Shown: positions 36,761 to 59,190 of the stretch, one piece after another
How the letters are laid out: each line of letters opens with the position of its first letter
How positions within the stretch are numbered: the stretch's first letter is position 1
NCBI GenBank assembly: GCA_022813865.1
Contig: JALDZX010000002.1
Span: forward strand, 496,001-560,000
Reading direction: 5' to 3'
DNA from: Xylographa opegraphella
Lineage: Eukaryota
Length of the DNA: 64,000 nucleotides
Translations under genes and position numbers: made by a program
The notes under the pieces: model-generated
Seen by the model: the letters and a program-made list of their open reading frames with translations, nothing else
What the model was told of the DNA's origin: nothing
Databases searched by the model: none

Positions 36761-38588
36761 ATGGCCCCGCGTCAAGCAAACCGAAACGTCCAAAAAGTTG
36801 GGCGGCAATGCTCGGTACCGAAAGGCGAACGTAAGTTATTCACATCGTCTTGTGCTTTGACTGATCGTTGATAGAAGCACGGCCACAAGGTATCAAGAAA
36901 GAACGCCCACAATCTTCTCCTCGTAAAAGCCTACGCCTGCAACACCGACAGGAACGCACTGTATCCAAGGACACGAACATCGAACCCAAGCATCAGCTTC
37001 CCTCTGCAATTACCAACACTCCCAGCACAGAGGCATGTCCCTCTCCTCCTACTATGCTCTAAAGCTAAATCAAGTCAAGTTTCCACAGGCTCGAGGACAA
37101 GAACGAAAACGAAAACGACCGCAAGAACCCGAAGGTGCATCCAATCTCGCTCCATTCGAACCCCTTCGAAAGCAACGGCGGACGTCTCGTTCAAATGCTA
37201 CTACTAAGCACACACATAACCAGGGGGCAGTGAGGAGCATCAACAAAAAAAAGACCAATTCCATTGCGTATTGGAGCGAAGAGGGACGCTGGCCTAAGCA
37301 ATACTTCACCCAAGACGATCAGACTAAGAAAGATTTCGAAAATTACAATGGGATACTCTGGGTAGCAGAGATGGGATTGAATCACTTACTTGCGAGGAAG
37401 AGATCGTCGTCTTCTTTTCGTGGTAAACAATCGGAAACTGGCTCTGTCACACCAAGTTCAGCTAGCGATGAGAAGCCGAGGGAGGACAAACACACCCCTT
37501 ATAAGCGTCCAAGCTATGAGACTGTGCTTGCTACCAAAGGTAGCTTTATGGGGAAGTTCGATTTGGGTATTACAGATGCAAGCAAGAAACTCTGTCGAAC
37601 TTTACTTGAGGCAGAACAATCAGTCCCTCAAGATACACTGTTTCGTGACGATCTGTTCGACGAAACTTGCGAGAGCGTGCGAGCGAGAAATGAAGCTATG
37701 GTTGTCCGAGACATTTCCCCATTGATATGTCCATCTGCTCAAGTGCTGAGGATCTATGGCGCGACACATCTCAAGGCTTTAAACGAAAGTGTTAATGAAG
37801 GCTGGAATTGCGCCGAACCCTTTTACGGTCCTCGCCCACAACCCGATTATTCTATAGGGTTCGGACGGTCTGCGTTTATGGATGATCGACTCGAAAAGCT
37901 TAAGCCTTTCGTGGGGGAGGTTCCAGATACATTTACGTCCCATTTCATGGCTACTTGGCAGATGTACTTCCCGTTCCTAACGTGCGAAGTAAAGTGCGGC
38001 GCTGCAGCCCTCGATGTCGCCGATCGACAGAATGCTCACAGCATGACACTCGCAGTGAGGGGCGTTGTCGAACTGTTCAGGATGGTGAAGCGCGAAAAGG
38101 AACTTCATCGAGAGATCCTCGCCTTCTCAGTCTCGCACGATCACCGAACAGTTAGAATATATGGTCATTACCCTGTGATCGATGGAGAAAAGACAACTTT
38201 CTACCGCCATGCGATCCATACGTTCGACTTCACAGCACTAGATGGCAAGGAAAAGTGGACAGCATACAAATTCATGAAGAATGTTTACGATATATGGATG
38301 CCGACTCACCTGAAAAGAATTTGTTCAGTTATTGATGACTTGCCGCTGGATTTTAAGGTCTTACAGCAATTTGAGGCGGCGGAATCTGGACTTTCACAAG
38401 GTTTAGAGAGTCACCATCTCTCTGACCAAACAAGTCATAATACTGCGTCTTTGGACGAAGCTGACAGTCAACCAAGTCACGTTGGTTCGCGAGACGTTAC
38501 CCCTGATACTTCCCTGTCTCAAAGGATGGAGGGGGGCGAATTCAAAAAGCCGAGGAAAAGGGGTCGACCTGTAGAGTTACATCAGTAA
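36761..38588 (+). CDS. Fungal PD-(D/E)XK-like protein (DUF7924-type) with long low-complexity N-terminus
   Basis: RNEAMVVRDI, GPRPQPDYSIGF, YFPFLTCEVKCG...ADRQNAHSM, AFSVSHD...RIYGHY. 5' exons inferred. Confidence 0.7.
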
Positions 38589-39219: not shown

Positions 39220-40129
39220 TAATCTATGAAGTCTATGGGGGGGGGCTGGGGCCCAGCCACCTAGGATCACCTTGCTTCAACAATTCCCTGGGATATTCAT
39301 CCTTGTGCTAGAACCCTGCCTTTTTTTTTACTTGAACATGTATCATTGTCGCTGCTGAGATTAGGTTCGCTGTCGTTTTGCGAATATTGAACAGCCAGCA
39401 GAACAATTAAATTACAAACTGGTGACGACGATTGTAAAGACGAGATTAAGGGCGGCAGATTGAATCGAATGGCGGAGATGAATTCCTTTGGGAAACAAGG
39501 ACTTACATAGGCGTTGGTCAGGATCGCGAGACTACTGGGGAATTCTTCGGGTAGTGTCAATTAGGCCTTTGTATGTTAGCAAGCTTGTAAATTTTCATGC
39601 AAATGTTTTTAGACCCGAATTGGACACCAATTTTAATTTATCGTTTTAAAGCTATCGAGTTCCCTTGTAACATCCTTCGGCCACTATTCGATGATGTTAT
39701 TAAGAGTACAGGACACTCTGTCAGTTTATGCGAGGAATTTGCACCAGCCACGTTATCACTGAGATTATTTGCCCCTGTTGTAGTTGTAGGTGTCATTGTC
39801 TTGCGAATGTTAAACGAAAATCAGGGTTGCCTTCGTTACAGGATGCGGTATCTGAAGAACAAGGGGCGGCGTTGTTGCTAAGCCTCGATAACACACTGAC
39901 AATATTTACATGATTTATTCGCAGCAATTTGGAATAGCTCAGGAAGGAGTAATCACACGATCTTGCTGGGTTTCTTCTATTGCACGTCGTTACGTCGACT
40001 GATTTTCGACGTCTTACTGCATTTTTAGTATTTGCGCAGCGACGCGGTCACGTCCATCTCAAAACATACAGCCAAGGTAAAGCGTGACTTCTCGTTTGAG
40101 GCCAGCGAACATCGTCTTGCGGTGGGCTT

Positions 40130-41426
40130 TCAATACTTGTAGCACAGCAGCGACGTCTCCGTCGACATGATGTCTCCGACCTTTCGCTCCAAGCCGAGGC
40201 CGTACAGCCTCAGTGGATCTTCCAACGACACGGTCGTCGTATCTTTTAACAAACCCTCCTGCGGCTCCCGAGCGGCGCTATCATAATCTCGCAGCCGAGC
40301 AGCCGGCTCCCGGTGCTGCCACTTCCACCACAGCCTGTCGATCTGCGCGTGGTGCACGAAGAAAATCGGGTCTTTGAAAGAAAGCCTGTCAGTGAGAGTC
40401 ACCATCCGGAAGTAAGGCGGCAAAGGGCACGAACCGTTCGTCGACCACGGCGTCGGCATCTCGCCGCCGATGCCACGATGTATCCATCTGTGGGGGCCCA
40501 GCTCTAGGCCGCTGCGGAACTCGTGATATGTTCTTGCGCCGGCGATCAATCCCTCCACAATCGGGGCCGTGTAGTTTCTACCGTGCATGCCTTCGCGTGC
40601 GAAGTTCCGACGCAAGCAGTGAGGCGTGGGGTATTGGGGTGCCATGTGAGCGAGCGGTCCTCGTTCCACGCACTGCTCCGAAGAGCTCCCGTTGCCGCTG
40701 AACCCTAGCTCATCTGACCATATTGGCGAACTCTCCGGATCAGCCGCGTCCAGAGTCCAGTCCCAGTACCTATACATTTCAGCACAAATCCTTGCTTTGC
40801 TCGGCCGACTCGGCGCGGGAATGGTGTCTCACGCCAGGTAACCCTTGTATCCACACTCATTTCGCAAGGCGTTCTCGTACTGCTGGATGTAATAGCGGTG
40901 CCAAGGCAAAGAGACAGGCACGTTGTGTGCTTGATATCATAAGTTTTGAGTTTTGAGAGGAGGAGAGCCCGGACCTACTGGTGTTGAACATTTGCAAATG
41001 AGAATACACGAAGTCGTCGTATCGAGTGGTGTTGAGCCCCATGCGGGAAGGGCTGTTCGAGAGACACCGAACGGCAGCAATGTAGCTCCGTCTGGCTTCA
41101 AACGGCAGCATTCGCCACTCCTGGCGCAGGGCTGGGTTGCGACCTTGGTTGATCATCAGCTTTTCCCGGTCAGGACTGCCTGGAGTGGCTTCCGGAGAGG
41201 GCTCACAGTCGGTTTTACTCGCCTGGGAGGAGAGAGCGGCATTGATCGTGCTCACAAGCAGCACAAACAATATCGCTGCCGCAGTGCAAACGGCAACGTA
41301 AATCAGAACGCCTGGAGACCGCACATTCGAAGACCGGAGGGCTTTGGCTTCATAACCCTTCTTCAGGAGAAACTCGTAACCCGTGGAGGCCGGGTCCTCG
41401 TCCGAGAGGCTCTCTTCATCTTTCAT
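40130..41426 (-). CDS. Membrane-anchored tyrosinase (UstQ/PhomQ-like), 4 exons
   Basis: N-terminal TM helix, LRQEWRML...YIAAVRCL. Spliced CuA site H-LQMFNTT-H-NVPVSLPW-H-R, ECGY...YWDW. CuB site GPHRWIH...DPIFFVHHAQIDRLWWKWQ. Confidence 0.9.
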
Positions 41427-42429
41427 GGCGACCGGCAATAACGTGGCTTTGCGATGATATCAAAGTCGGGAAGCAAGAAGCGGAAAGAAATCGCTAGACA
41501 CACGGGGCAGATTGCTCTAATTGTTCCATCACAGAATAACAAAACGCTTTTGCACACAAATGCTCCATCATACCCTAGCCAAAATTTGGAACCATTGGAC
41601 TCGATAGTTGTCTGCGGATGTGCAGACGATAGGCCTGGCGCCTTCTACGAGAATACCGAGGAATGCATCGCATAGGTTGTTTTCCAAGCAGGTCGGAAAG
41701 GAGCACAGGTAACGGCATGGGCGATGGATAACGAGTCCGAAGTTCGGTATTCCTGAGGTAGGACAAGGCTTCGGATGGGTGGGTTATTTGCGATCAACCT
41801 TGGCAGAAAGTCACGTGAGTATGTTGTCAGCGACTGGCTCAAGACCACACTTGAACGCAGCCTTGATGCCTTTGGACCACAACGCTATTTTAGGTTGTTT
41901 GACTGCAGTTGAGGTGATTATGTCAAATCGATAGGGGTTCGCGCCATAGCCAGCAGTGCCTTTGCCGTTTAAAATGTCTTGAATGATTTATCGGGATCTT
42001 GTATGCATTGGAATACATATTTGAGTGGTTACTTAAGTACTTGCAAGACAATTCGCAACGTGATTGGATGTAAAGACTAGCGGAAACACTACTATGCTAC
42101 TCGTCTCTCTCGTAATATCGATACGCATTCCGATGCAATACGGGTGAGCAAGCAAGAATCAATGACCCATCATATTGTATGCAAGAGTAAAGTATGAGTT
42201 CATTCAATCGCATGGGAATGACTGTACTTTCCACAAGCTACACGAAATCCCATACTGAAAGAGCGAATGATACATTTTGCTGAGCCCCTTATCAACCTTT
42301 GCACATATCAGAAGCCAGGAGTCATTCTCAACACCTCTCCATACAGTCTCGCCCAGTGACTTGATAGTACTCGCAATCCTTCCATGGTCCTCCATTTCCT
42401 TTTCGAGGTCATGCTCGTGCTAGCTTCCC

Positions 42430-42957
42430 TCAAACGACTGGGCTGAGGACTACATACTGTTAGCTAGGAGATTCCTTACGCTTTTTGCCTGGAGGTCCAT
42501 CCTTACCTGGCTCTTCAACCACACGCTTGGAATTAGGGGACTCAACATCGCGTTTGTAGTATGGGGATTCAACCTCACGCTTGTAGTTTGGAGACTCCAC
42601 ATCGCGCTTGTAATATGGGGACTCAACCTCACGCTTGTAGTTTGGAGACTCCGCATCGCGCTTGTAGTATGGGGATTCAACCTCACGCTTGTAGTTTGGA
42701 GACTCCACATCGCGCTTGTAGTACGGGGACTCGACCTCACGCTTGTAGTTAGGGGACTCAACATCGCGTTTGTAGTTAGGGGACTCGACATCGCGTTTGT
42801 AGTTAGGGGACTCGACATCGCGTTTGTAGTAGGGGGACTCCACGTCACGCTTGTAGTACGGGGACTCGACCTCACGCTTTTCGTCAAGGGATGGCGTGGG
42901 GAGGCCCAGGACCGTGACTGCGCCAACAAGGGCGGTGAAGAAAACGGAGTAACGCAT
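42430..42957 (-). CDS. Kex2-processed repeat protein / dikaritin RiPP precursor (signal peptide + 13 x [DE]-[VA]-ESP-[YN]-[YS]-KR)
   Basis: ATG at 42957, MRYSVFFTALVGAVTVLG signal peptide, LDEKR, then 13 nine-residue KR-terminated repeats. Probable 57-nt intron 42450-42506 (GTAAGG...GCTAAC...TAG) gives the end VVEEPVLSPVV*. Unspliced, it stops at 42460. Confidence 0.9.
42523..42873 (-). repeat. 27-bp coding tandem repeat x13 with a 54-bp higher-order unit
   Basis: Units: EVESPYYKR, DVESPYYKR, 3x DVESPNYKR, then alternating EVESPYYKR / D(V/A)ESPNYKR, last DVESPNSKR. Confidence 0.95.
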
Positions 42958-43273
42958 GATGATAGATATTGAAGATCTAAAGTCTCTGAAGAAAGTGAAC
43001 GAGATTGAAGATGTAGTGGGCGACCTGGCTGGAATCTGATAGTATGACGGAAGCAGTGCTTGGGATTCAATGACCAAGGGAATATCTCCAAGCTTTTATC
43101 CTCAAGCCAGCTTCACGACCTCTGACGTAGCAGTAGTCGCTCTTCGATATCAGCGCTCCTTCCATCGGTGGATTTCTAGGGGTTTCGGATTGGAGCCGAC
43201 TCAGGATAATTCGTCACGTCATGTCGAAGACATCGAAAGCCACGATGAGTACTCAAAATGGATAAGATCGCCC

Positions 43274-43405
43274 CGGAATTGGATTTGCGGCTGCTCGGTA
43301 AATGTATAAATTCATCCGAGCATGCGACGAGTGGCTAACAGACACAGAACCTCTCATAGTAGGGTAAAAGCTGCTTCGGAATTGGAACTGCGGCTAATCG
43401 GAAAA
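43274..43405. promoter_or_regulatory. Duplicated CGG-triplet motif in the precursor/DUF3328 divergent promoter (candidate Zn2Cys6 sites)
   Basis: cggaattggatttgcggctgctcggtaaa (43274-43302) vs cggaattggaactgcggctaatcggaaaa (43377-43405): 24/29 identical, with all three CGG triplets conserved. Confidence 0.5.
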
Positions 43406-43635
43406 GTGTAAAGGCCAAGATTGAAGTGCAGGTAACTGCTATCCGAATCGGAAGGTATTCGGAGATATAACGGGTGACTTGGATATAAGCTAAACGCCGG
43501 CTAGGAAGCAAAGGACAAAACATAATCAGTGCGGCTTTGTCTTTACACTTTGCCTTGTATCTTTATTTTCTCGTTATTTCATATCCTACCTGACTTCAGT
43601 ACGCTGAAATTGGCTGTCAAAGCAAGACGGTGAAT

Positions 43636-44392
43636 ATGGGGTCCTCAACGCCGTTTACACCATGCCGAATAAGCACAGCTTTCTTCTTTTGCTTTGTCGG
43701 CATGATGTTTGTCTTTCAAAGTCAGATAAGAGATGCCGTCAGATCAATGCACCACGAAACCTGCGAAAGGACAGATTATATTCACGATCAGCGATACGGC
43801 CCGAGGACCTTCCCAGAGGTGTCTCCTCTGGAGAGTCTTGGACCCGAGGGGGACGAAGCCTGGGATAGACTTACCACCAGCAGTGGTGGCTTCCTCTGGC
43901 TACAGTACAACGAGACATACGATATCCCCTGGGGGATTTCTATGTTTCATGGCACACATTGCCTGCAGATGCTGCGTCAAGAGTTTCAATCACAGCTTGG
44001 AATTAGTAATGGGGGAGGCCATCACCACCAAAAGCGCAATATTGCCACGAAGCATGACGGGCATAGCAGTGGCCCGGACATTGTGCACCTAGGGCATTGC
44101 CTAGCATACGTTGTCCAGGTAAGTCACCGAGCAAACACCTAGCATTGCTGATCAAGACCAGATGCTCCAATGTACCGGAGACAACACAATCGAACGCCCA
44201 TGGATCAAATTAGATGAGCTCACGGGCGATCTCATTGACCACGGCGTTGACGGTGCAGGTATACAACACCAGTGCCGCGACGTCAATCACATCTGGGCAG
44301 CGGCGGAAGCGACGGAGAGAAAGGCCGCCCCAATGTGGGACCACAAGCCTGGAGATACAGTTGAAATGGTCTTTGGGGATCTTAGAGTGTAG
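43636..44392 (+). CDS. DUF3328 / UstYa-family oxidase #1 (2 exons)
   Basis: N-terminal TM helix, DEAWDRL, SMFHGTHCLQMLR and HLGHCLAYVVQ|MLQCTGDNTIE (two HxxHC motifs), HQCRD. Intron 44119-44161. Confidence 0.9.
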
Positions 44393-44803
44393 ACGCAGGT
44401 AAAGGAAGGCAGTATGGCTTCATAATGTAAGAATAGATAGCCAGAATGACGTCCAGTGGAATCATGGAGAACGGGTGATGCTGCTTCGTATTACTCATTG
44501 AAGGCATAATCTGATCTGTGCATAACCAGGACGTGAGCTCAGAGTGGTCAAGTGCAAAGCTGCGAAATGATGTGGAAAATCGTGAAAAGCCTGTAACTTC
44601 AGCCTGGACGTTGGATTTATGCCAAGCTTTGTGCACACGCTAAAAGGTCGGTTATCTCCGGAGCCAGGAATCCGTGCTGTGGTCGACCGTTCAACACAAT
44701 TCCGAAGAAATTCCCGCATGTTTCATAGATATGGTCCGTCCAGTATCCGCGTTCAGTTGCGCCCAAAACGCTGCAAACACATATCTTGCTGTGAAAAATA
44801 GAG

Positions 44804-46455
44804 ATGGCATCCGACGGAAATGGCAGTCGAGGCTTCCACCAGCAGCGACATAATTCTGGTGAAGAAGAAGTTCTTCTTCTCCAGGCAGATGCAGATGCCG
44901 AATCTCTGGCTTCAGATACACCGTCGACCCTCATCCCGGAGACCCTAGTCTCCACCAAATGGATCACTTTACTCCTTGTCGGCATTCTTGCTCTTTTCTT
45001 TGAGACGGGCAACGCCATGCGCGCGGCAGCACTCATCGCCAGCTATGAGGATATTATTTGCCACAGCCGCGCCGAGATCCGTGCTACGCCCGTGATGCAG
45101 TGCTCGAAGAACCATGAAGTCGAAAGGGAATTAGCGTTGATCTTGGGTGTGTCGCAGTTTCTCGAATGCCTACCGATACTGCTACTGTCGGGCTTTTATG
45201 GTAGCATGGCAGACAAATATGGCAGGCGACCGATCCTTCAACTTGGCTATCTCGGCATGATCCTAAGCTCGACGTGGGTAACCGGTGTCGCCTGGCTGGC
45301 TCCCGCTGTCCCGCTCCGCCTTGTCTGGCTGAGCCCTATCTTCACCGTCGTTGGTGGTGGGCCTGGCGTATCGATCTCCATTCTCATGACAAGTGCAGCC
45401 GACGTCGTTCTGCCGAGTGAAAGGGTCACCATTTACTCTTACATCCATGGCACCGCTCTGGTCGCGGTCATGCTGGGGTCTTTGCTCAGCTCTTTAATGA
45501 TGACATCGCTGGGGAATTTATCACCGCTATTGACGGGACTGGCGCTGATGTGTCTAGCGTTAGCATCGGGTTTCTTCCTGCCCAGTCAAAGAAATACTAC
45601 CAAGTCCTTCACTACGGCATCCGATAGTGATTTTTATCTGAAGCCCTCGGACGATTCGGATGCATCTTCGCCAGTGCAGGCACAGGGAGGTCGAAACTTT
45701 TCGGTGCGAGCACTGAGCCAGTCTTTCCAGAACCTCTGGAGAATCAAAGGCGTCATACCATTGCTGATCGCAGGCTTTGTGTCTATGCTGGGTCAACAGG
45801 TACAGATCTTGGTTCTCCAGTATGTGCCGAATAGGTTTGACGTAAGCATTGCCAAGGTAAGTATTTCCAATATCGCTTCGTGCAATTCTCCATTAACATA
45901 CCCCGTTCTTACTCTAGGCAAATATGTTCAACATTCTGATCTCAGGGGTCAATCTCCTCATATTGTTTGCACTGCTACCTTTAGCGGGTGTACTAATCTC
46001 GCGCCACCTTGGCTATACCACCTTCGTCAAAGACCTAGTACTTGCTCATGCCAGCAATCTCTTGTTTCTTACAGGAGCACTCGTCTTGAGTATGGCGCCA
46101 GTGCTGCCCATAGCATTTATCGGTAGGCTACGACCCAAGCGTATCCTCTTGCCTTGACTTTACCGTGCTCATGAATACAGGTTTTATTATATTTGGCGCA
46201 GGCATTGGCCTAAGTAGTCTTCTACGGTCCATCTTCGTCGAGCTCTTCCCACCAGAGCGCGCGGCATACGCGACCACGGTGATTTCTGCTGTAAAGAGTG
46301 TGGGGGGGAGCTTCTCAGGGCCCATGTACTCCTCCGCACTTGCACTAAGTCTAGGCTTGGAAGGCTTTCTCCAGGGCCTCCCATTCCTAGTCTCTGCTGC
46401 TAGTTTTGCGATCGTGGAGCTCGTGTTGATCACTGTGAGATTCACATATAAATAA
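44804..46455 (+). CDS. MFS transporter (UstT-like), 3 exons
   Basis: Multiple TM helices, MFS motif A GSMADKYGRRPIL, FTVVGGG, ADVVLPSERV, second half RSIFVELFPPE...GPMYS. Confidence 0.88.
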
Positions 46456-46759
46456 ATGCAATCTAGACACGTTTGTAACAGCTGCAATACGGAATATAAT
46501 GTCTCATTCATATACTCGACCCCCTGCGTGCTTCGAGTTAGCCTCTGTGAATGGTCCCACATGTTCGCCAATCTACCACGCTCTGGGATTGCTTTTCGAC
46601 TTTCTAGAAATATCACCTTAATGCCCAATAAATCACAAGATACACCGAATCACTCTGTTGAGTTTACTACCAGAACAAGCTCAAAGAATTTTTATCTGCA
46701 CGATATGATAACCGACCACGTTTAGCTGTCATTCAGCGCGCAACGCATAGCCTTGCTAC

Positions 46760-49474
46760 TCAAGTCAAAGATGGCTTGCCGGGGAGACATTGTGCCGGAC
46801 AAAATTGCTGCGCGATTCCACTCAATTCAACGACCTCAGCCAGTGGAACCACGAAGCCAATCGATAACCTGCCAAAAAGTCCACAGGCGATTGCAAGATA
46901 CGAGATTTCGTCATCATTTGACCACTTGAGAACGACCGCCAGGAAGATTATCCGGACAGCGATAAGGAGGGGGTAGACTAGCGTTCTGAATGCAAGTATC
47001 AGCTCATTCGAAAAGCTGCGATATGCGAGGAACGCCAGGGTACTTGCCTGTTGACCAGAAAGTCCGGTACGCGCACATTTTCATAGCTCTCGAGGATCAT
47101 CTTAGCCGTACTCACACAGCGCTTGCAGGCCTGGCTGCGTTGCTGGTCCGGGGCCTTGGAAAAGGTACTCGGTGGGTACAGCCAGCGGCTGTCCAGCGCC
47201 AGCAGCACCTCGTAGTACTGCAAGTGTAGCTGAAGGAATAGGCGGCGTTCGTGGCCGCGCTCGCGTGCCGGGATACCGCGGCTCCACAGGTGGGGGGGGA
47301 GCTGCGAAACCCACGCGTCTACTTGCTGGTGTAGGAACTCCGTCGCTGTATCTAGCGTGGCTAATGGTGTTGAGACCACGTTTGGACTGTAAAGAGCCTT
47401 TCGGGTCAGCGAGCATAGCTTGGCGTACTGGACTTGCAGCAACAAGTAATCCGTGCGGTCGGCGGCGCGTGAGTTGCTTGCGCTCAGGCACTCCGGAACG
47501 TCGAACTCGATTCTTCCTTCATCGAGGGCCTTGTAAGTCAATCAATCAATCAATCGAAGACCCGAATTGATACAACGGGGTCAAACATACGAATGGCAAG
47601 CCCCATCGCTGACAGAAAGGTTGTGCGAGCGTGTATAAATACCACAACGTTCGCTTGGCGTAAGTTTTCTCCTCGGGGCACAACGAGAGAGCGTCGACTC
47701 CAGCTTTCTGAAATAAACGAAGGCTATAGGCGCAGGAAAGTGCGTTTGTTATTAGTATGGAACAACACCGGAAAAGCGAAAGTTGTTGCATATATAGACT
47801 GTATTAATTAATTACCTGCTGTGTAAATTTGACCCTGAATTGAACACATACCACGACGATTAGTGACTGTGAGATGGTAAGCTGAACTCCGCAGTTAACC
47901 GCAGAACATGTTACTCACTTGAAGTTTCAGAAGCGTATCTTTAGCAAGGAGGACGCCGGTCAACGCAACAAGCGATAGACGAAAGAACGATTCAGAGTTG
48001 TTTTTCTGCCCTTGCGTTTCGTTACGCAAATGGAAGCTAATGGCTATAGCCGAATATACAAGGGCTTTTTTCACGGACGAGTTCGACTTGTTTCTCAATA
48101 CAGATTGAAGCATCTCCTTGAGCCTATCCAGACTTATAAAATTTCTGACCCTAAGCAACAGTCACCTACTGCTCTTTCGCTTATTTTATATATATATTTA
48201 CCCTGTCAGGTCGTTATAGCATTCTGTGATTCCACCAGTAAGTTATTACTCGTATCAAAGATTTTGGTTGAATCTTACCATTAAGGAGCTCATCAAGAAT
48301 AATCGGACTGTACAATTGAAGAGTAGAAGTTTCTAACTCTGTCATATCACAGTCAACGAGGTCGTATTGAGTTGGTTCGAGTCCTTGAAAAGAAGCCGAT
48401 GCCATGCCGTCCGTTGATAGAACGCTTGCTTCGCATTGGGCCCAAGAAAACGCCGATCTGATAGAATGATAAACCGTGCTTTCAAGTACTATTCACCGAC
48501 TTAGCTGATTCGTTCCGAAGCGTGGAAGCTCGATAAGTACGAACCGGTATCAAGTGAAGATGGTATCTATCTCTCTCAAATTCGCTTAACAACAGAGTTT
48601 CATGCTGTCAAATGGAAATACGTACCTGCAACCAGCCACGATCCGAGCTCGACTCCGAATCGACCTCTGGCCCATGCTGCAAAACCTCATCTTGTGATGA
48701 GGGGAAGTGGGACTGCGTTAGAGGTGTATGTAGTCCCTCGGACGATGCATCGAGAAGATCAGTTGAGAAGAGACTAGTAAGAGAATTTCTCGGCAAAGAG
48801 ATGGCATCCTCACCGAAGCCATTAAAGACAACGGTCGGGGCAAGGTTGTTTGAAATTTGGTTCTCGTGAGACCTGATCAGGCTCATAGGACTGCTTGGTA
48901 ATAAATCCATATCGATGTCGGCTAAACCAGGGCTTTGAAGGTCGAAAGTATCCCATAATAAACTGGTTATCGAGTTATCGAGGTCGAACTGATGACTCTT
49001 ATCTGAGAGAAGAGAAGTTTGCAAGGAGGGTAATTCTTTGCGAGTTGATGGTTGTTCAGTATTTATCGAATTCCTCTGCCGCTCGGAGGACAATTTTCGA
49101 GAAGATCTCCCCGAGTCGAAGCTTGAGCGAGCAAAGCGAGCTTGTTGATATATACAATCCTTTTTCAGTCTCTGCCGAGTCGATATCAAAGTCGTATCTC
49201 ATCGACGTGTGGGGGATTAACGTACGTAGCATGGATCGCATGGCCTTGCTCCGTCGCCTATAGTGCAAACGTTAGCTCAATGCTGGTATGATTGCATAGT
49301 CGACATCAACTCACATCGCACCTTCCTCGACTTGCAAGACTCGCAAGCGCCACGACGTCGAGTTAATATCTGTTTCGAGCCATCGGTGCCAGGGGAACAG
49401 GAGCCTGTTGCCGGCAAGAAATCCTTCGGCTGCGACCTGGTATGAAAGGAGGGAGAGTGTGAAACGGAGTCCAT
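46760..49474 (-). CDS. Zn(II)2Cys6 transcription factor with fungal-specific TF domain, multi-exon
   Basis: Splicing gives RRRGACESCKSRKVRC|DGARPCDPCY|RLKKDCIY (C-x2-C-x6-C-x5-C-x2-C-x6-C). Downstream AKRTLWYLY...WGLP and QVDAWVSQLP...LHLQYY. Stop TGA at 46760-46762. Internal exons approximate. Confidence 0.8.
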
Positions 49475-50106
49475 ATCAAGAATAGGGTAAGGCACAACAA
49501 CCATTCGAAGGTGAAGTGATATACTCGTCATCTTCTGACAGACGTCGTTGCCACGACTGTTGTTATGATTACAAAATAAGCGAGAGTAGCATATATGCAG
49601 AACAAGTATGGCATTTTACCATGTTCGACCGTTCTCGTAAGCGGGGTGTTTAGCATCAGAGATCGGGCCGACAGAGCGACTTTATAATGCTGATAGAATA
49701 CTAAAAGTATGAACAAATAACAGCAGTCATGGTATGCAGTACAGGTGACATAACAACAAAGATCAGGCCTATTCAATGAATTGATTGCGATTATAGTAAG
49801 ACAAAGCCAAGGCTTGAGTGAATGTTTAAATTCTACTCTCGATTGAAAATAAAGATGGTTATAAAGAGTACCTTGATCGAGTATCCGAACAATATAGAGA
49901 ACCGATGATTATTGTTTCGAAACTCGGAAACGCACATTAAACACCCGCTGCGGCCTGTTCCGCCCACTAAAAATAAGCGTTGAATTTAAATTATCCGATG
50001 AAAGGTACGATGCGTACTGAAGCGCAGTGGTCATTCTAGCAGAATATATGGGTAAACAAGTGTGTTGTATTAGCTATGAACAACTACGAGACTATATGCT
50101 CGCGCA

Positions 50107-50476
50107 CTAGCGTCACCGGGCCTACGGCGGCCCGATCTCTCGCTTAGCAGCTCTCGCTATCCTGCAGGCAGGCCGGGACTCTATTTCTAACAGTTCGTTT
50201 TATATATTAAATTAAACGTTGATAAATATAAACTTGCAGTTTATAATTATAACAAATTTTTAAAATTTTGATTTCGATTTCGATTTAAATTTTATTTTTT
50301 ACATTAATAATTCTTTTACTTTCGAGAGAAGTTTCAGGTCCATGAAGCATAACATTCGATACGGTAATGTATTTCCTTAATTTCAGCACTAGGATCCCTT
50401 GGAGTGTGACGGCTATGACATCAGTCACAGGTAACAGGGGTCGGGCTGGATCAGGACTAGCACCTTTAGTATATAG
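50107..50476 (-). mobile_element. Probable non-autonomous Helitron-like element (~370 bp, AT-rich core)
   Basis: On the minus strand it ends with the hairpin CGGGCC-gccgta-GGCCCG (50117-50134), 6 nt, then CTAG followed by T. It begins ctatatactaaag. The interior is very AT-rich. Confidence 0.5.
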
Positions 50477-50500
50477 TCTCGCCCATGGAGCAGCCTCACC

Positions 50501-50519
50501 NNNNNNNNNNNNNNNNNNN
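50501..50519. other. Assembly gap (19 N)
   Basis: Run of n in the sequence. Confidence 1.
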
Positions 50520-51067
50520 GGTTGAAATCGTCCACCTAAAGCTTACGTTCTAGGCGTGCTTGTGTGGTGAGTTGATGAGCCGTAACATGGAGTAAGGTGT
50601 AATCGATTGCAACTGTTTAATCTTTCGTGTGATGGCGCTAGAGCAATGTTTTCCCGGCTTACCTCCCTCCTCCCTGGAATGATCCCGCCACGATCCTTCT
50701 CGGAATTCAATACTGTTCTTGCTTCCTGTCATGCATATTATGCCTATCATGCCTAGGAGAAGTAGGTAGCAGAGAATTTTTCTTATCTCGCTGTCGTGTT
50801 GCTGGCAATATGCATCCCCATTCTGCTGTCGTCATTCCCATACGGAGTGCGGATCCCGACGCGGTGCATGCGCACTAGCGACGTTTTTGTTCGTAAAGTA
50901 TTGTTTGCCACTTCCTCTGCAACCGTGAGTGCTAAAGCTGATCTACGGGGCAAAACAGTGTCTTTGCATCCTACGGACCCACGGAACACCTGCCAGCAGC
51001 GCCTTGAATTCCTGATCTCGAAAGGGAAAGGAATCTGCTCCTCAGGTCTGTAGCAGTCATTGTTATC

Positions 51068-54000
51068 ATGGCCACGCATAGAAGTCTCGCCTGCGAACCA
51101 GCTGCTGATGATAGCTTTGGCCCTGTGGTCGACGCCTGTGCCCGCTCATTCGACTTCACCTTGCTCTTTGAGCAAAGTATTCTCTCTGCCGCTCCTACCA
51201 CCGTCTTCCTGCTTCTTTCCTTATGGCGAATATGGAAGCTCCGCATCTCTAGCCATAAGACAAAGCATAGCTGGATGTCAATTGTCAAACCGATTGCGGC
51301 TCTGGCGTTGATCGTCTGCCAAATTACTCTTCTAGCCTTATACACCAGGTCAAACACAATCAAAACTAGGTTCTCTATATCAACCACAGTATTGAGTCTT
51401 TCCGCTGCTATGGCTATTTTGCCACTTTCATACTTGGAGCACACTCGATCTGTGCGACCATCGACACTTCTAACCTCTTACCTTGCTTTCTCAATCATGC
51501 TTGAAGTTCCTCAGATTCGCACGATTTACCTCATACCTGGGCAGCTGGATTTAGCGGCTGCTTTCTCTACGGTGATGGTCGTCAAAGCCGCCCTGCTCCT
51601 GTTTGAGTCATGGAATAAAAGAGTTCTCCTAGAGAGCCAATACTGTTCCCTGGCTACAGAGGCTACAAGTGGTATCTTCAGCCGCAGCCTTTTCCTTTGG
51701 ATGAACAGCCTCTTCTTGAAAGGTTTCGCCAGGGTAATCTCGTTCGATGATCTTGGTCCTGTTGACAGCAAGTTAGATTCAGCCAGACTTCATCAAGTCT
51801 TTTGCGCTGAGTGGGAGTTACAGGATCATAATGTTAAATGGCCCCTTCTGCGTACCTCATGGAGGGCTTTGCGCTGGTCAATACTATCGCCTGTACCTCC
51901 CCGCTTGTGCTATGGAGGGTTTCTTTTCGCACAGCCGTTTCTCATTAATAGGGCCACCGCCTACTTGAGCTCTTCAAGTGGCACTATCGATGATGACATT
52001 GGTTATGGGCTCATCGCTGCTGCGGGATTTGTGTATCTAGGGATAGCAGTAAGAATGGGGATTTATAGCAGCCTCCTCAAAGCTGAAAGGCTAATGTTCA
52101 TAATCTTAGGTTTCGACGGCCTTGTATAAGCATCAACTCTACCGCCATATCACAATAGTCAGAGGCTCACTCGTATCGGTTATCTACTCGCAAAGTCTGT
52201 CTATGAAGCGTCTCCCGGACGATCCATCGGCTGCCGTAACTCTTATGAGCACTGACGTAGACCGAATCTGCCAAAGCTTGGTGTGTTTACATGATACTTG
52301 GTCGCGCCCATTGGAGCTGATCGTGGGGGTCAGTCTTCTAACCTTGCAGATAGGCTGGGTGTCCGTTGTACCACTCATTGTTGTGCTCTTTAGCGCCTTG
52401 GTTGACTCCAAGGTCACTTTGTCAATTGGAGGGAGAGTTGCTCTCTGGACTGACGCAGTTCAGCAACGAATCTCGCTGACGGCAAATGTGCTGTCGTCAA
52501 TGAAAAGTGTAAAGATGTTGGGGCTCGTGAGACCTATGCACGTGATGCTGCAGAATGAAAGGTTACGTGAGCTCAGACTGCAGTCAAAGTTCCGTTGGTC
52601 GACCCTCTGGTTGAACACATTAGGTAAGACCCACTTCCATTCAACATGAAAATATATTTGTCCACATTATATGTCGCAAGTTTGCCCAGAACTCAAAGAG
52701 CCAGCCATAAGACTACTTGAGAACACATGTTCTCAAAACACGTCAAAGACATTATATCTCTTATAAATTTGCTCATCGATGGCTCTCGAATGATTGTATT
52801 AAACTATATTTGAGTTCAGAGATTTAACTAGTTGCTACAGGGAACGTACCTACTGCGCTCACAGCCGCCGTCACTTTCATGACCTATGCGATCAAGGCAC
52901 ACCTACAAGGCTCCACTAACCTTGACGCTTCTCAAGCATTCACAAGCCTGGCGCTCATTTCGCTTGTTACAACTCCTGCTAGCGAACTTCTGACTGCATT
53001 CCCATTCACAGCTGCATGCCTTGGATGTCTGAGAAGAATCCAGGAGTACCTAATGCAACCGAGGTATACCGATCGGAGAGTTTTCACTACAGGAATGGAT
53101 GGATCGTTTGCAGAGAAAGCTAATCGTGTTTCCAACTCGGATACAATCATTGCACGTATATTTCACATAAGCATTCCGGCACTCGTCGGCTCAGGTTCTC
53201 TCATACAGGATTTGGACGTAACGATCCACCGCAATACCCTCACCATGATACTAGGCCCAAGCGGATCAGGAAAGTCGACGCTCTTGAAAGCCATTCTCGG
53301 GGAAGTCAATTACAGTGGATCAATCTCAATCGCTACAACTCGAATCGCCTACTGTCCTCAGAGCCCGTGGTTGTTCACAGGTACTGTCCAGCAGAACATA
53401 TGTGGCTTGGGAGTGGAACGAATCGACAACATCTGGTACCAGTCGGTTCTTTACGCATCTGCACTACATGATGATCTTCTAACCCTGCCGCTTGGTGATC
53501 AGACAAGAATCGAGGGACAAGCTGCCAGTTTGAGCGGTGGTCAGAAGCAACGTATCGCGCTTGCCCGGGCCCTTTACCAGCAACCACGACTTCTTTTGCT
53601 TGACGATATTCTTAGCACTCTGGATCTTCAGACAGAGACACAAATCATAAAAAACTTACTTGATCCGAATGGCCTCCTACGAAACTCCAAAACCGCAATC
53701 GTGCTAGTGACGCACACTAGACGCTACGAACCGTTGGCAGATAATGTTATTATATTCGACGAATCTGGAAATTCGACTCAGTGCTCCCATATATCACCAT
53801 TGGAGGATAGAATCGTCAGCATGATTTCAGAAAAGCCAGAAACCCTGGTACTTCCAACTGATGCAGCAACTTCCAAACAGGACCTGTGCAGTAATAAAGT
53901 AGTCCAAGAGGATCATTCGAGCGCGGTTTCGCTTCAGCTTGATGGTGACACTGCCGATTACTTTTACTACTTCAGGACTATGAAGTGGCAACAAGTATTG

Positions 54001-55686
54001 TTTTTCTTTCTCTTGGTAGCTATTCAGACTGTCTGCTACTATATGTCTCAGGTTGTGTTACAGTGGTGGACAGCAGATCACGGCTTGGAGGAAACCAAGT
54101 GGATGTCGATTTATATCATCTTGGCCGTTGGAAACGCTGTATTCTATGGCTGCATCGTGTGGGCTATGTTCCTCAACATCGTGCCGGAGTCTGCTGCCAA
54201 ACTCCATAAAGTATTGCTAGATACGGTCATGGACGCTCCCTATTCATTTCTTGCAAAAACCGATGCCGGGATTATCCTCAATAGATTTAGCCAGGATATG
54301 ACACTGATCGAGTCGCAATTGCCGACAGGGATAATGTGTACAACTATCTATCTTTTTTGGACAATAGGATCGCTGGCCCTGATATCCACAGGTTCGGTTT
54401 GGATGGCTCTGACGATCCCGGCCGTTTTTATTGCGGTTTTCTTCCTACAGCGGGTTTACCTTCGTACGTCTCGTCGACTTCGTCTAATCGAGCTTGAATT
54501 AAGGAGCCCGACGTACTCACACTTTATGGAGACATTGAAAGGACTGCTGTGTATTCGAACGCTCGACTGGGAAAAGCAGTTCACTAATGCAATGATCGCA
54601 AAACTCGACGCTTCTCAAGTTCCATTCTATTTACTATATTGTGCACAGAGATGGCTACAACTCGTGCTGGACTTAATCGTTGCCGCTCTCGCCATCGTGG
54701 TCATGACGTTAGCTGTGAAGTTGCGTAGTTCCACTGACCCAGGATCTCTTGGACTTTCGCTCAATAACATCTTGAGCTTTAACGAGACGCTGTCTCTTCT
54801 TCTTCAATTCTGGACACAGCTGGAAGTCTCCCTAGGAGCTATCACACGAACCAGAGAATTCTCCAAGGAGGTGCCAAGAGAATCAAATCCACCTTTTCCT
54901 AGCCAGCCCTCTCCGGAATGGCCAGATCGCGGCGGTATTGAAATACGCAATCTTAAGGTCCAGTACACTGAAGCGAAGGTTGCTTTGAGCAATATCAATA
55001 TGTCGATCCGACCAGGAGAAAAGATTGCACTTTGCGGACGAGCTGGAAGTGGAAAGACTTCACTGCTTTCAGCAATCTTGCGTCTGCTGGAACCCTCGCA
55101 CGGCTGTATATTGATCGATGGCATAGATATCAGCTCCGTTTCCCATGAAACGGTCCGTGGCCGCCTACTGACTATCCCGCAGGATCCATTTCTACTTCAA
55201 CGAAACTCTCGCTTCAATTTGGATCCCCTGTCGCACTACAGCGATGCACAAGTTGTCGCCGTTCTGTCCAAGGTCTCCATATGGCCGTTACTTGAGAAGC
55301 GAGGAGGCTTGGACGCCAGCATAAGCTCCGATCATCTGTCACACGGTCAGAAACAGCTCTTTAGTCTCGCTCGAGCTATTCTACGCAAGGATGTCACAGA
55401 GATTGGTGGTGAGAAAGAAAGTAGAGGTAGAGTGCTGCTACTCGATGGAGCAACGAGTAGCGTCGACGCCGATACTCACGCTCTCATGCAGCGTATCGTC
55501 AAAGACGAATTTCCTACGCACACGATGCTAATCGTAGAACACCGACTGGATACAATTCTAGACTGTGATCGCGTTGCAGTACTCGATGCCGGTAGGCTTG
55601 TTGATTTTGACAGTCCTGCGACGCTACTTTCAAGAGATTCGGCATTCTCCGCGCTATATAACGCTCGTGAACGCGAGGCATTATGA
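51068..55686 (+). CDS. ABCC/MRP-type ABC transporter (TMD0-TMD1-NBD1-TMD2-NBD2), 3 exons
   Basis: DDSFGP...FDFTLLFEQSIL N-terminus, LMSTDVDRI. NBD1 GPSGSGKST, LSGGQKQRIALARA, LLLDD. ILNRFSQDM. NBD2 GRAGSGKTS, LSHGQKQL, LLLDGATSSVD. Confidence 0.92.
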
Positions 55687-56040
55687 CTCGAAAGATATAT
55701 ATAGTGGTCACTGTGATCATGAGCTCTAGGGTAGGCTTCGTCATCATTATGCAGTAAATAATTCAACCTCGCCAAAGCCAGCAATTTACTCAAGATGTAC
55801 TTTGTGTAGCTTTTGGTGTTCTTGATCTAAGATAAGAACGCGAAGTTATTATATATACTGACTGGCTATGCGGACGTTTTCTCGCAAAGAAGAACCACCC
55901 TTGAGTTGAATTGTTGCCGGAAACATCAAGCACGTCGTCTAGTCAGACGAGACAGAGATACTGTCACTGGTGTACCTGGTTTGGTTTGGCTACGCGTGCA
56001 ATTGTACGAGTAAAAGTTCTCAGGAGGCTTCCAAATTGAT

Positions 56041-57533
56041 TCAGACTAATGCGATATCGACGAGGTGACTGAGGTTATAATTCCTGATATGTAGCAAATG
56101 ACCACTGCCAGCCTGCACTTCCTCCAGCGATTGCTCGGCCTTGGTGGTACCGTTAGTACTGCACCGGCTCAACATATACATAAGGAAAGAGACGGAGCTA
56201 AAAAGCAACAAGGTCGCTGAATACATTAAGAGAACAAACGGTGTAGTTGGCATACTTCCGCTCGACAATAGCTGCAACTGCTCCTTGTTGGCTCCAATAA
56301 AGAGTAGGCCACTCGCGCCGAGCGACTATTGCTATATCAGTTGAAGTCCTAAAACATTACCATTGTACACTTACGTATGCGGTCAGAAGCCGGAGTAGGT
56401 ATATCTCTTTGGTCATAGCGGCAGCAGATTCTTTCGATGTTCCGGTAAATCCTGCGGCAAGAATTTGAGCCACTCCTGCGGTTTGCATAGAAAACCCCAA
56501 GAACTTGTGCAGGATTGAAGGTGCGGGAAGTGTTGAATGAGTTGCGAGAAACCACCCGCCAATAACGAGCAGGACGCCTGATGAGGCTTTTCGCAATATC
56601 TGAGAGTCTGACATCCAAGCCAACCATGTAATGAAAGCATGGACACAAAGGTACACCAGGCCGGTGATGACAAGGTCGAGAATGGCTCGTTGATGTGTTT
56701 CTTTAGATATCCAGTCTGCAAGCACGACCAGCACACCGCTCATATTGACCAGTGTCGCCAGAACTGCATCCGAATTGGCGAAGGGAGCCGTCAGGCGGTA
56801 GCGCTCGCATTGCTGAATGAAAAGCAGAAGAACTCCTACGCCAATCAAGGCACTCCCAGAGACTGCATGCACCACGCACTGGCCAGTATGGCTGCCGTGG
56901 CAGAATCCCAGCGCCGTGACACCCCCAAGCATTACTTGAAACCAGGACACCAAAGGCATACCGATGCCAAGGACTGCGTGCGCCGCAATTACCGTGCGTC
57001 GTGTCCTGACCCAATACCTATGCTCGAGATGAAGCTTGAGGTAGACGCCGCAGAGGATCTGTACTGCAAGCCAATTTGTCACGAAGCTTGCGAGCTGACC
57101 GTGGGCATTCGACCTGAACTCCCGCCCTCCATGCCCTTTGGCCCAGAAAGTGGCCAATTATGGCACAAACGAAACCTACTGTCTGGACGGGAACATGCCA
57201 ACGAGATCTAGCAACCTGACCTCCAATCAGTCTCTATGATCGGCGCTGTTCCATCACCAGAGGGCAGGCTCACACCCAATACTATTCCTGTAGGGAAAAT
57301 AAGCATCCAGGTGACTGTTTGAATAAAGATGTGAAGCCAAAGTGTAACGTCCTAGATTTGCTTCAGCATTCAAGACCGAGTCAGTATTTGGAGAATTTGG
57401 AAAGTACAATTGGTGCTGCCGATACATGTTCTCCCTTGGGAATATTATGAGCATGATGCTCGTGAGAAAGTGTTGCCCTTGCTAAACAAATAGCAATGAA
57501 CCATAGTTGAGATGCATTCGTGAAGTGCTTCAT
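56041..57533 (-). pseudogene. YTP1-like (DUF2427/Ytp1) multi-pass membrane protein carrying a 1-nt frameshift
   Basis: Spliced reading: signal peptide, SHEHHAHNIPKGE..API|DVTLWLHIFIQTVTWMLIFPTGIVLG|..RSRWHVPVQ..IGHFLG, then (frame shift) HGGREF..GVYLKLHLE..QVMLGGVTALGFCHGSHTGQCVVH and C-terminal LLIGANKEQL, matching fungal YTP1 motifs. There are 7 nt instead of 6 at 57134-57140. Confidence 0.7.
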
Positions 57534-58077
57534 TATGATTCAAGTCAACTTGGATATAGCGTTGACTCTGGGACGCAGATGAGGGACACAACCGGGCTCA
57601 GGACTGATAAAATCATCTTTAGTCTCGGACCATATACGGGTTGATAGATACGGCGATTCTCAATCCAGCCGTAGTGACTTTTGTACACTGCACAGTCTTA
57701 CGAATAAAGTCATTATTTCTCACTAAGGCCCATTGCAGGGTTGTATCTGGTTATCTCGGTAATAATGCAAGGCGTGTATCCCTGTTGATCTCGGAAATCC
57801 TACACGTGACTTATCCGATCGGAAAGGGTAGGTCCGCCCCGAGTTAGCCGCTCGGAAATGGGATACACTAATCGCCAATTCTATTGTCACCGCACCGATA
57901 GCCCAGTGTCACATCGAAGCTACCGATATGCGGTGCACTCGTAGCTTGCGTATGAAGAGCGTTGGGTGCAGGTCAAAATGCTAGTCCCGTCCGAATGAGA
58001 GGTCTTCTGCTCTGTTCCGTATTTTCATTATCTATCGTGCATATGGTGGTGTTATTTCAGTGATATTGTTCCACATC

Positions 58078-59190
58078 ATGTCCTTCTCCCCCAAGTACAC
58101 TCGTCTCGGCCCCAGCGTCATTCCACAGTCTTGTCTAGAGTCACACAACTCCGCTGTTGAATCAGATGGCTTTTTGGAGAAGACGAGTCCAGGCATGAAG
58201 GACCAGCCCTCCTGGCCTAAAAAGATGGCATTTACACTTACTCAAACCTCTCTCAACTTGGTGTGGACGCTTCTGCTCCTACTGACGACCTTTCTTGCTC
58301 TCCTCTCGAAGGAGTACCGAGAACCATGCGTGGAATGGCACGATACCGATATAGGTTAGCAACCTTTTACAAGAAGAATCGCCAGAGGAACCATCAGCTG
58401 ATGCATATCACCAAGAACCCGCGAGGCGCCACATAGAGCGAATACCCGTAAAGTTCACGAGCGGTCTATACTGGAATGAGACGACGGGCGATACTACTTA
58501 CAGAACCTGGAACGAAGGTGAGCCGGTATTCGTGGGCCCGAGAACGCCAGAGCTAGATGCGGCTTGGGACGACATCTCATTACGTATGCATCAATCTTTC
58601 ACAAGGAGCCTCGCACGTTTACTGATGTTTGTGGAAGCGCTGGACCTCTACGTGACAGAGGAAGAGGCCATTAGTATATCCGATATCCCTCAGGGCATGT
58701 ATCAGGACCCAGAAACCGGCAAATATATGGTAGTGTACGGTTTTTGTTCCCATCTGCTGAGCTGCCGTTAGCTGACATCCTTTCCCCTCAGTGTAGAAGC
58801 GATTCACAGCCTTCATTGTCTGGTAATGTACCTAGAATTCTAATTGTTTCTCTTGCTGACAAGGACAACAAGAATATGCTCCGTAAACGCATCTATCTCC
58901 ACGATTATCCTGAACTCGATTCTCGAAACCTTCCGAACCACGTCGGTAAGTCATTGATGCCCTCGATTCAGCGATGGCCCCTTGAGCCGGGCTGATGACA
59001 TCAAGACCATTGCATTGAAGCACTGCGTCAGAACCTGATGTGTACCGCGGACATGACACCCGCACCAATTTTCTACTCGTCAGCCGTCGATAAGGTCCAA
59101 CCAAACTTCGAGATCACGCATTCATGCCGCAATCTCCGGCCGCTGTTGAAGTGGGCAAGAACGCGTAGTGTCCATCAGTCGTACAGCTGA
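58078..59190 (+). CDS. DUF3328 / UstYa-family oxidase #2 (about 6 exons)
   Basis: TM helix, FVGPRTPELDAAWDD, VEAIHSLHCL|NMLRK, NHV|DHCIEALRQNLMCTADMTP, HSCRN (two HxxHC motifs). Stop TGA 59188-59190. Confidence 0.88.

Follow-up and report, generated by a model that had tools for sequence, protein, structure and literature searches.

A Probable Dikaritin-Class Peptide Gene Cluster with an Undescribed Core Motif in Xylographa opegraphella

Does a compact group of genes in Xylographa opegraphella, among them a tyrosinase, a secreted repeat protein and two DUF3328 (UstYa-like) oxidases, encode a modified peptide of the dikaritin class, and if so, from which core sequence? We analyzed the locus within a stretch of 64,000 nucleotides (GenBank assembly GCA_022813865.1, contig JALDZX010000002.1, positions 496,001 to 560,000 of the forward strand), here called the window, and numbered positions from its first letter. 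A first-pass annotation of this DNA had listed eight genes at 40130–59190 and assigned them to a dikaritin cluster, that is, a fungal cluster for a ribosomally synthesized and posttranslationally modified peptide (RiPP), with the core SP(Y/N)Y. Stop-to-stop open reading frames (ORFs) and Pfam profiles recovered all eight genes in this interval, bearing out the list and its coordinates. We consider it probable that the locus is a dikaritin-class (UstYa-dependent) RiPP cluster with a core not described before, acting by the mechanism proposed below. The dikaritins include potent antimitotic peptides (ustiloxins and phomopsins), and only a small part of the many predicted clusters has been linked to a product.

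Precursor with 13 Tandem Repeats

The candidate precursor gene lies on the minus strand at 42188–42957. Its coding sequence, 42957–42507 joined to 42449–42430 across an intron at 42450–42506, specifies 156 aa and is followed by a 3′ untranslated region reaching to poly(A) near 42188. The protein consists of a signal peptide, a short pro-region ending in KR, 13 units of 9 aa and a tail of 11 residues; by hydropathy and inspection, residues 3–21 form a hydrophobic N terminus (mean Kyte–Doolittle value 1.62) of the kind expected from a signal peptide. The 13 in-frame units of 27 nt have the consensus [D/E][V/A]ESP[Y/N]YKR, and Tandem Repeats Finder reported a period of 27 with 12.7 copies (score 387) and a higher-order period of 54 (score 478).

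A Kex2-type KR closes every one of the 13 units. The heptapeptides in front of it are EVESPYY (five units), DVESPYY (one), DVESPNY (five), DAESPNY (one) and, in the final unit, DVESPNS. Glu3, Ser4, Pro5, Lys8 and Arg9 are constant in 13/13 units and Tyr7 is present in 12/13. Across the units, Pro5 is encoded by all four proline codons, and the codon differences amount to 251 synonymous versus 106 nonsynonymous; the repeat is thus conserved at the level of the peptide, not of the DNA. The repeats contain the SP(Y/N)Y of the first-pass annotation, but the invariant motif is E-S-P-x-Y, with a glutamate preceding the SP, and SP(Y/N)Y is one possible trimming or core boundary. No other ORF in the window has regularly spaced dibasic sites (n = 1), and the protein, being secreted and built of repeats split by dibasic Kex2 sites, qualifies as a Kex2-processed repeat protein (KEP).

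Candidate Cross-Linking Enzymes

The precursor gene is placed between a tyrosinase gene and the divergently transcribed gene of a UstYa/DUF3328 oxidase (UstYa1). The start codons of the precursor and UstYa1 are 678 nt apart, a geometry that gives the two genes a common divergent promoter region at 42958–43635. When we ran the profile check that the first-pass annotation had proposed (PF11807 and PF00264), two UstYa matches and one tyrosinase match were found above the cut-offs.

The tyrosinase gene (40130–41426, minus strand) encodes about 370 aa after removal of three introns. Its PF00264 match (40133–40828, minus strand; E = 2.3e-17) scores 64.5 bits against a cut-off of 22.6, and the histidines of both copper sites are kept, H...H-x8-H in CuA and H-x3-H...HH in CuB. 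A search of the PDB gave 45 matches, all type-3 copper proteins, the nearest fungal one being a catechol oxidase (4j3p/4j3q, E about 1e-29). The intron at 40372–40434 (63 nt) is spliced out in an RNA contig, and the other two were placed from GT..AG sites and the Xylographa pallens protein. This 63-nt intron is in frame and free of stops, and in the public X. pallens protein it is left in as 21 additional residues, which are absent from the RNA contig and from tyrosinase homologues; the X. pallens record carries an annotation error in the form of a retained intron.

UstYa1 (43636–44392, plus strand; 237 aa, intron 44119–44161) matches PF11807 at 43594–44139 of the plus strand (E = 2e-09), and the second oxidase, UstYa2 (58078–59190, plus strand; 276 aa counted from the first ATG, five introns), matches it at 58999–59187 of the plus strand (E = 1.4e-14); the scores of 38.1 and 55.0 bits are above the curated cut-off of 25. 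Each protein has an N-terminal anchor and two HxxHC motifs (HGTHC and HLGHC in UstYa1, HSLHC and HVDHC in UstYa2), and the two are 25% identical over 171 aligned positions. The tyrosinase and both UstYa proteins have one N-terminal hydrophobic segment each, in the tyrosinase at residues 40–58 (mean Kyte–Doolittle value 2.93), and by their sequence these segments fit lumen-facing membrane anchors.

Between its HxxHC motifs, UstYa1 has a His-rich loop with the consensus GGGHHHHKR..ATKHD (residues about 119–142; window about 43990–44060). In an alignment of 10 sequences the loop is kept across the UstYa1 subfamily, whereas UstYa2 lacks it; the loop may serve as an additional site of metal binding. 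No UstYa relative was found in the PDB by sequence at E ≤ 1, and an AlphaFold2 model of a UstYa1 orthologue from the 10-sequence alignment was unusable (mean pLDDT, the predicted local distance difference test, of 41.7).

Probable Assignment to the Dikaritin Class

A redefinition from 2021, quoted in PMC12048977, makes DUF3328/UstYa the class-defining dikaritin enzyme, and the locus unites a signal peptide and KR-delimited tandem cores with two such proteins carrying HxxHC. With both HxxHC motifs in each UstYa and both copper sites in the tyrosinase, the class named by the first-pass annotation is supported. The original five-gene definition by Ding et al., as quoted in PMC12048977, gives a less complete match: The tyrosinase is present, the major facilitator superfamily (MFS) and ABCC transporters of the locus fill the place of a transporter or peptidase, and a methyltransferase is missing. 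Characterized dikaritin members also miss single items of this five-gene list (PMC12048977). In a published census, 1,758 of 7,878 KEPs had DUF3328 no more than 15 genes away; around these DUF3328-linked KEPs, tyrosinase genes peaked at a distance of two genes, and 65.6% of the repeats in these KEPs contained tyrosine (PMC7329392).

We compared the locus with four described systems. In ustiloxin biosynthesis, the precursor UstA carries a signal peptide and cores flanked by KR, UstYa and UstYb are "mutual homologs," and ustQ, ustYa and ustYb are essential, and in Aspergillus oryzae sufficient, for the first cyclic intermediate (PMC6514808). The window shares with the ustiloxin B cluster of Aspergillus flavus and Ustilaginoidea virens the KR-delimited tandem cores with acidic residues before the core, a tyrosinase next to two mutually divergent DUF3328 proteins, an MFS transporter, a Zn-finger regulator, and one precursor with two core variants, which in ustiloxin (YVIG/YAIG) give the A and B forms (PMC6514808, PMC7329392). 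It differs in the core itself: That of ustiloxin, Y-[AV]-I-G, has its tyrosine first and sits in units of 13–14 aa, whereas here the tyrosine is the last of seven residues and no isoleucine is found, so the core is not of the ustiloxin/phomopsin type, which starts with Tyr-x-Ile and is cyclized between Tyr1 and Ile3. The window cluster also lacks the methyltransferase, cytochrome P450, flavin-containing monooxygenases (FMOs), pyridoxal phosphate (PLP) enzyme and peptidases that decorate ustiloxin.

The phomopsin cluster (phomA, phomQ, phomM, phomY) founded the name "dikaritins," with PhomQ being essential, and like the window it combines a KR-repeat precursor, a tyrosinase and DUF3328 proteins (PMC6514808); its core starts Y-V-I-P, and its methyltransferase and S41 peptidase have no counterpart here. 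Asperipin-2a (aprA, aprY, aprT, aprR) resembles our case in its minimal cluster and in a Tyr-rich core, FYYTGY, that ends in tyrosine, and its AprY makes ethers from the tyrosine oxygen to a β-carbon (PMC6514808). The asperipin cluster, however, has one DUF3328 protein, no tyrosinase, a reductase that is absent here, and an unrelated core. Finally, the Clan R1 clusters of Parmeliaceae (Pasinato & Singh 2025, PMC12048977) are likewise from Lecanoromycetes and pair two UstY homologues with a tyrosinase, but they contain an O-methyltransferase and an FGE-sulfatase, and the text of that study reports no repeat precursor for them, whereas the window has an explicit one.

The absence of a methyltransferase, P450 and FMO, suggested by the first-pass annotation, was confirmed by Pfam: None of these, nor a peptidase family, was found among 60 intergenic ORFs of at least 60 aa between 38.6 and 64 kb, and no methyltransferase, P450 or FMO among 21 scanned ORF pieces of the cluster genes. 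From 38.6 to 64 kb, we found no polyketide synthase (PKS), nonribosomal peptide synthetase (NRPS) or other scaffold gene, and elsewhere in the window, a scan of 27 ORFs of at least 130 aa added no UstYa, no tyrosinase and no scaffold enzyme.

Proposed Pathway and Product

In the pathway that we propose, the precursor would enter the secretory pathway by its signal peptide, and the tyrosinase and the two UstYa oxidases would, by analogy with the systems above, oxidize and cross-link the repeats in the lumen. Kex2 would then cut after each KR, and exopeptidases, presumably Kex1 or Ste13-like enzymes, would trim the peptide ends. The expected output is up to 12 copies of a modified peptide derived from [D/E][V/A]ESP[Y/N]Y, in two congeners with tyrosine or asparagine at position 6. 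The product would be exported, or the producer protected, by the MFS transporter, the ABCC transporter or both, and the Zn2Cys6 factor would control the cluster.

Position 6 alternates between Tyr and Asn and Tyr7 is nearly invariant, which suggests two congeners and makes Tyr7 a candidate for the cross-linking residue. By analogy, the product is probably a Tyr-derived ether macrocycle, and the Tyr and Asn congeners are probably made from the one precursor. That the last tyrosine forms the cross-link, and bonds to an invariant upstream residue, is a guess of low confidence, with Pro5 (i-2) mirroring the Tyr1–Ile3 spacing of ustiloxin and phomopsin. Units with two tyrosines could carry a second link. 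The conserved C-terminal tyrosine would probe how UstYa oxidases pick their cross-link partners.

Transcription and Conservation in a Sister Organism

We compared the region 39500–59400 with the DNA of a second organism (X2) and with three RNA runs (X3, X4 and X5) from three studies. Of the DNA words of the window, a further run (X1), perhaps the one from which the window derives, contains 99% and X2 53%, and four wood-decay metatranscriptomes contain small shares. The X2 contigs span the locus at about 97–98% identity, except for gaps in the precursor repeats and around a run of 19 N at 50501–50519; a sister organism has thus kept the cluster. Short-read assemblies break inside the precursor repeats, and the X2 contigs end there at 42634 and 42851.

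Intron-free RNA contigs were found for seven of the eight genes in wood-decay metatranscriptomes. For the precursor, contigs in all three runs join across the intron at 42450–42506, with word depths of 316, 104 and 43 in X3, X4 and X5, respectively; such depths cannot rank genes or give relative expression, and the RNA contigs come from mixed communities, not from a controlled co-expression series. At 42188 the X5 contig of the precursor runs out into a stretch of T, the poly(A) tail of a minus-strand transcript. Spliced RNA of UstYa2 was likewise present in all three runs (five GT..AG introns in X3, three in X4 and one in X5), and that of two further genes in X3 and X4, for UstYa1 across 44119–44161 and for the Ytp1-like gene across 56326–56374. 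The MFS gene had both introns removed in X5 and one in X4, and X3 contained the spliced forms of the tyrosinase (intron 40372–40434) and of the transcription factor (joints 46985/47048 and 47799/47919, including a micro-exon of 14 nt). The splice joints prove real mRNAs of this organism or of close relatives in decaying wood. RNA contigs are missing over most of the ABCC gene and the 5′ two-thirds of the transcription factor gene; this is not evidence of silence, and such gaps speak against the other contigs deriving from carried-over DNA.

The comparison also revealed two frame breaks that the first-pass annotation, otherwise complete in its gene list, had missed. At a T-run at 47772 in the Zn2Cys6 factor, the X2 DNA and the X3 RNA are one base shorter than the window, and under RNA-supported splicing the window frame hits a stop. 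At an A-run at 57139 in the Ytp1-like gene, the X2 DNA and the X5 RNA are one base shorter, and the window frame is broken. Either the assembly is wrong at these two sites, or the changes are real and inactivating.

Relatives and Earlier Descriptions

The first-pass annotation had contrasted the core with those known, and our searches agree with it. In full-text literature searches, the repeat motif gave no relevant paper, only irrelevant viral-epitope matches, and the KEP census (PMC7329392) does not have it in any of its three supplementary files; the core sequence is undescribed in the literature searched. A word-indexed search of 5.8 billion proteins (lengths 90–289 aa) gave 6,138 candidates, none of which scored as a relative of the precursor at E ≤ 0.01. 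With phmmer, 1.84 billion representatives yielded 246 matches at E ≤ 0.001; the 150 matches listed were screened for the motif by script and contained no signal-peptide KEP with it, and the 20 of them inspected individually were low-complexity repeat proteins. The precursor of the window is itself missing from both protein libraries, so the gene seems to be unannotated in public protein sets. Around UstYa1 relatives in 12 metagenome loci (L001–L012), of which only L001 (1.9 kb) was close, at 66%, we found no ORF with KR repeats.

For the enzymes, relatives were readily found. The tyrosinase is 99% identical to X. pallens MMC27_008862 and UstYa1 99% identical to X. pallens MMC27_008799; in X. 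pallens, a wood-dwelling lichen fungus whose habitat fits the RNA from decaying wood, the two genes lie on separate contigs. Tyrosinase homologues are present in Loxospora ochrophaea (69%), Scytalidium lignicola (59%), Botrytis (56–57%), and Talaromyces and Aspergillus ellipticus (about 50%), and the identity to the protein that NCBI names "Tyrosinase ustQ" is 32%. The closest nonlichen relatives of both enzymes are from Botrytis hyacinthi, a pair that had escaped the first-pass annotation: BHYA_0306g00070 (tyrosinase, 57%) and BHYA_0306g00100 (UstYa1, 63%) stand three locus tags apart on one contig of 41,283 bp. Judged by these sequence matches, a related tyrosinase/UstYa locus exists outside lichens.

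In the KEP census, type 362 comprises three members, from B. hyacinthi, Botryotinia narcissicola and S. lignicola, all with DUF3328 nearby (Umemura 2020, PMC7329392). These KEPs may be orthologous precursors; their cores probably differ from that of the window since none matched the precursor in the protein searches. The tyrosinase of Talaromyces atroroseus is a partial match (60% over 48% of the query), for which reason the RiPP cluster of Sclerotinia sclerotiorum and T. atroroseus (PMC6941272) may be related. A survey of lichen RiPPs took in eight Xylographa genomes, X. pallens among them, and the available main text does not mention the genus (PMC12048977); the locus was probably already counted among the 987 anonymous biosynthetic gene clusters of that survey.

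Alternative Explanations

Several observations weigh against a working dikaritin cluster with a new core. No product has been observed, and the cross-link is proposed by analogy alone. Neither the protein libraries nor the metagenome loci contained a related precursor, so conservation of the core across species is unsupported, and the locus has no peptidase (S41 or other) and no methyltransferase, both parts of the original five-gene definition. UstYa proteins also occur in non-RiPP clusters, e.g., those of atpenin and the astins (PMC12048977), and units of 9 aa, versus 13–14 aa in UstA, leave little room for a recognition sequence. The RNA stems from environmental relatives at 90–100% identity, not from this strain, and with the transcription factor and the Ytp1-like gene out of frame in the window, the cluster may be silent here unless the breaks are assembly errors.

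The last point leads to the alternative that the cluster is of the dikaritin kind but inactive in this genome, with real frameshifts in the two genes and functional copies in sister strains or species. The shorter T-run at 47772 is common to the X2 DNA and the X3 RNA, and the shorter A-run at 57139 to the X2 DNA and the X5 RNA, and the window versions meet stops; the two are, moreover, the only coding indels among 12 of the 15 indel rows. Both, however, lie in homopolymers, the usual site of assembly errors, the run of N testifies to an imperfect assembly, and in the same 12 of 15 rows there is no difference that breaks the frame of any of the six other genes. We regard inactivation as possible but doubtful. 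The alternatives that dispense with a cross-linked peptide fare worse. The precursor could be an ordinary KEP that yields unmodified secreted heptapeptides, for signaling or pheromone-like, with the tyrosinase and UstYa proteins acting on another substrate: In the census, 6,120 of 7,878 KEPs have no DUF3328 neighbor and many are pheromone-like (PMC7329392), and UstYa proteins work in polyketide and nonribosomal peptide pathways too (PMC12048977). Yet no gene for a PKS, an NRPS or another scaffold enzyme lies between 38.6 and 64 kb to supply such a substrate, the precursor gene stands directly between the tyrosinase and UstYa1 genes and has its divergent promoter region in common with the latter, the tyrosine is nearly invariant in the repeat, and two of the three runs contain spliced RNAs of the precursor and of both UstYa genes side by side, one of these also that of the tyrosinase. 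This makes unmodified heptapeptides an improbable product. Still less credible is an acidic, Tyr-rich repeat protein that stays uncut and is cross-linked or polymerized by the tyrosinase, through DOPA or dityrosine, into wall or adhesive material. One or two tyrosines in 12 of the 13 units and the adjacent tyrosinase gene would suit it, but a canonical Kex2 KR ends all 13 units, the protein has only 156 aa, and two UstYa genes and two transporters would be left unexplained.

We therefore retain the dikaritin-class cluster as the preferred reading. The locus is one of many predicted KEP-plus-DUF3328 loci, similar uncharacterized ones numbering in the thousands, and its value is that of a good target for heterologous expression, not of a new principle. 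Its small gene set and its origin in a lichen fungus add to its appeal, and it is tractable, with four candidate biosynthetic genes, a fully explicit precursor, transcription in wood-decay communities, and RNA-supported splice sites in the precursor, both UstYa genes and one tyrosinase intron. For its two conserved clans, the lichen RiPP survey reported no repeat precursor, a gap that it termed a "mystery" (PMC12048977); to that field, a Lecanoromycete cluster defined by its precursor offers a concrete test case.

Accessory Genes and Flanking Regions

The MFS transporter gene (44804–46455, plus strand; introns 45857–45917 and 46123–46180) encodes 510 aa in an open spliced frame with a Pfam MFS_1 match (E = 4.7e-12). 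The multi-exon gene of the Zn2Cys6 transcription factor follows on the minus strand at about 46999–49560, with a putative start and the micro-exon of 14 nt at 47853–47866. Its Zn_clus match is weak (0.0067) because two introns split the domain, across which the full C-x2-C-x6-C-x6-C-x2-C was read. The promoters yielded no common motif: No 7-mer is common to all five cluster promoter regions, no 8- or 9-mer occurs in at least four of them, and the CCG/CGG pairs are inconsistent in spacing.

The ABCC-type transporter gene at 51008–55686 (plus strand) was predicted as ORFs of 373, 179 and 952 aa with TMD0_ABC, ABC_membrane and two ABC_tran matches. Next to it, on the minus strand at 56041–57533, lies the gene of the Ytp1/DUF2427 polytopic membrane protein, whose intron at 56326–56374 is supported by RNA, the spliced form coming from the same runs as that of biosynthetic genes. 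The Pfam matches to Ytp1 and DUF2427 are weak (3.8e-05 and 2.8e-04); the nearest Atlas clusters consist to 100% of Ytp1 (scores 0.86 and 0.85), and the PDB gave chance-level matches only. We take the Ytp1 family to resemble the cytochrome b561-like membrane proteins of electron transport, and if it is b561-like, the protein may feed electrons to the lumenal oxidases. A more far-reaching interpretation combines a new dikaritin topology, defined by Y/N congeners and by a cross-link from the last Tyr back to an invariant upstream residue in place of the first-residue Tyr of ustiloxin and phomopsin, with Ytp1/DUF2427 as a dedicated electron-transfer partner, unreported in dikaritin pathways, and would make the locus the first lichen-fungus RiPP with an identified precursor, abundantly transcribed in nature. 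We offer it tentatively and think it rather unlikely to hold as a whole.

Between the transcription factor and ABCC genes, where the run of N is located, the segment 49628–50588 differs from X2 by length differences of 52, 478 and 188 nt and by small indels; this part is either variable or poorly assembled. About 200 nt past the UstYa2 stop, at 59397, X2 DNA contigs and metatranscriptome contigs of X4 and X5 depart from the window, and all three go on with one and the same sequence that differs from it. The remainder of the window, up to 64000, has a GC content of 44–49% and no ORF matching Pfam. An insertion, a rearrangement or an assembly join may mark the edge of the cluster here. On the other side, the cluster is directly preceded, at 36927–38588, by an ORF of 553 aa that matches DUF7924 (E = 7.6e-110). 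Farther upstream are a gene with NB-ARC and TPR domains, resembling NOD-like receptors (NLR-like; minus strand, 30768–33042), and a beta-lactamase-family/DUF3471 gene (plus strand, 34162–35799), both of which we judged to be outside the cluster.

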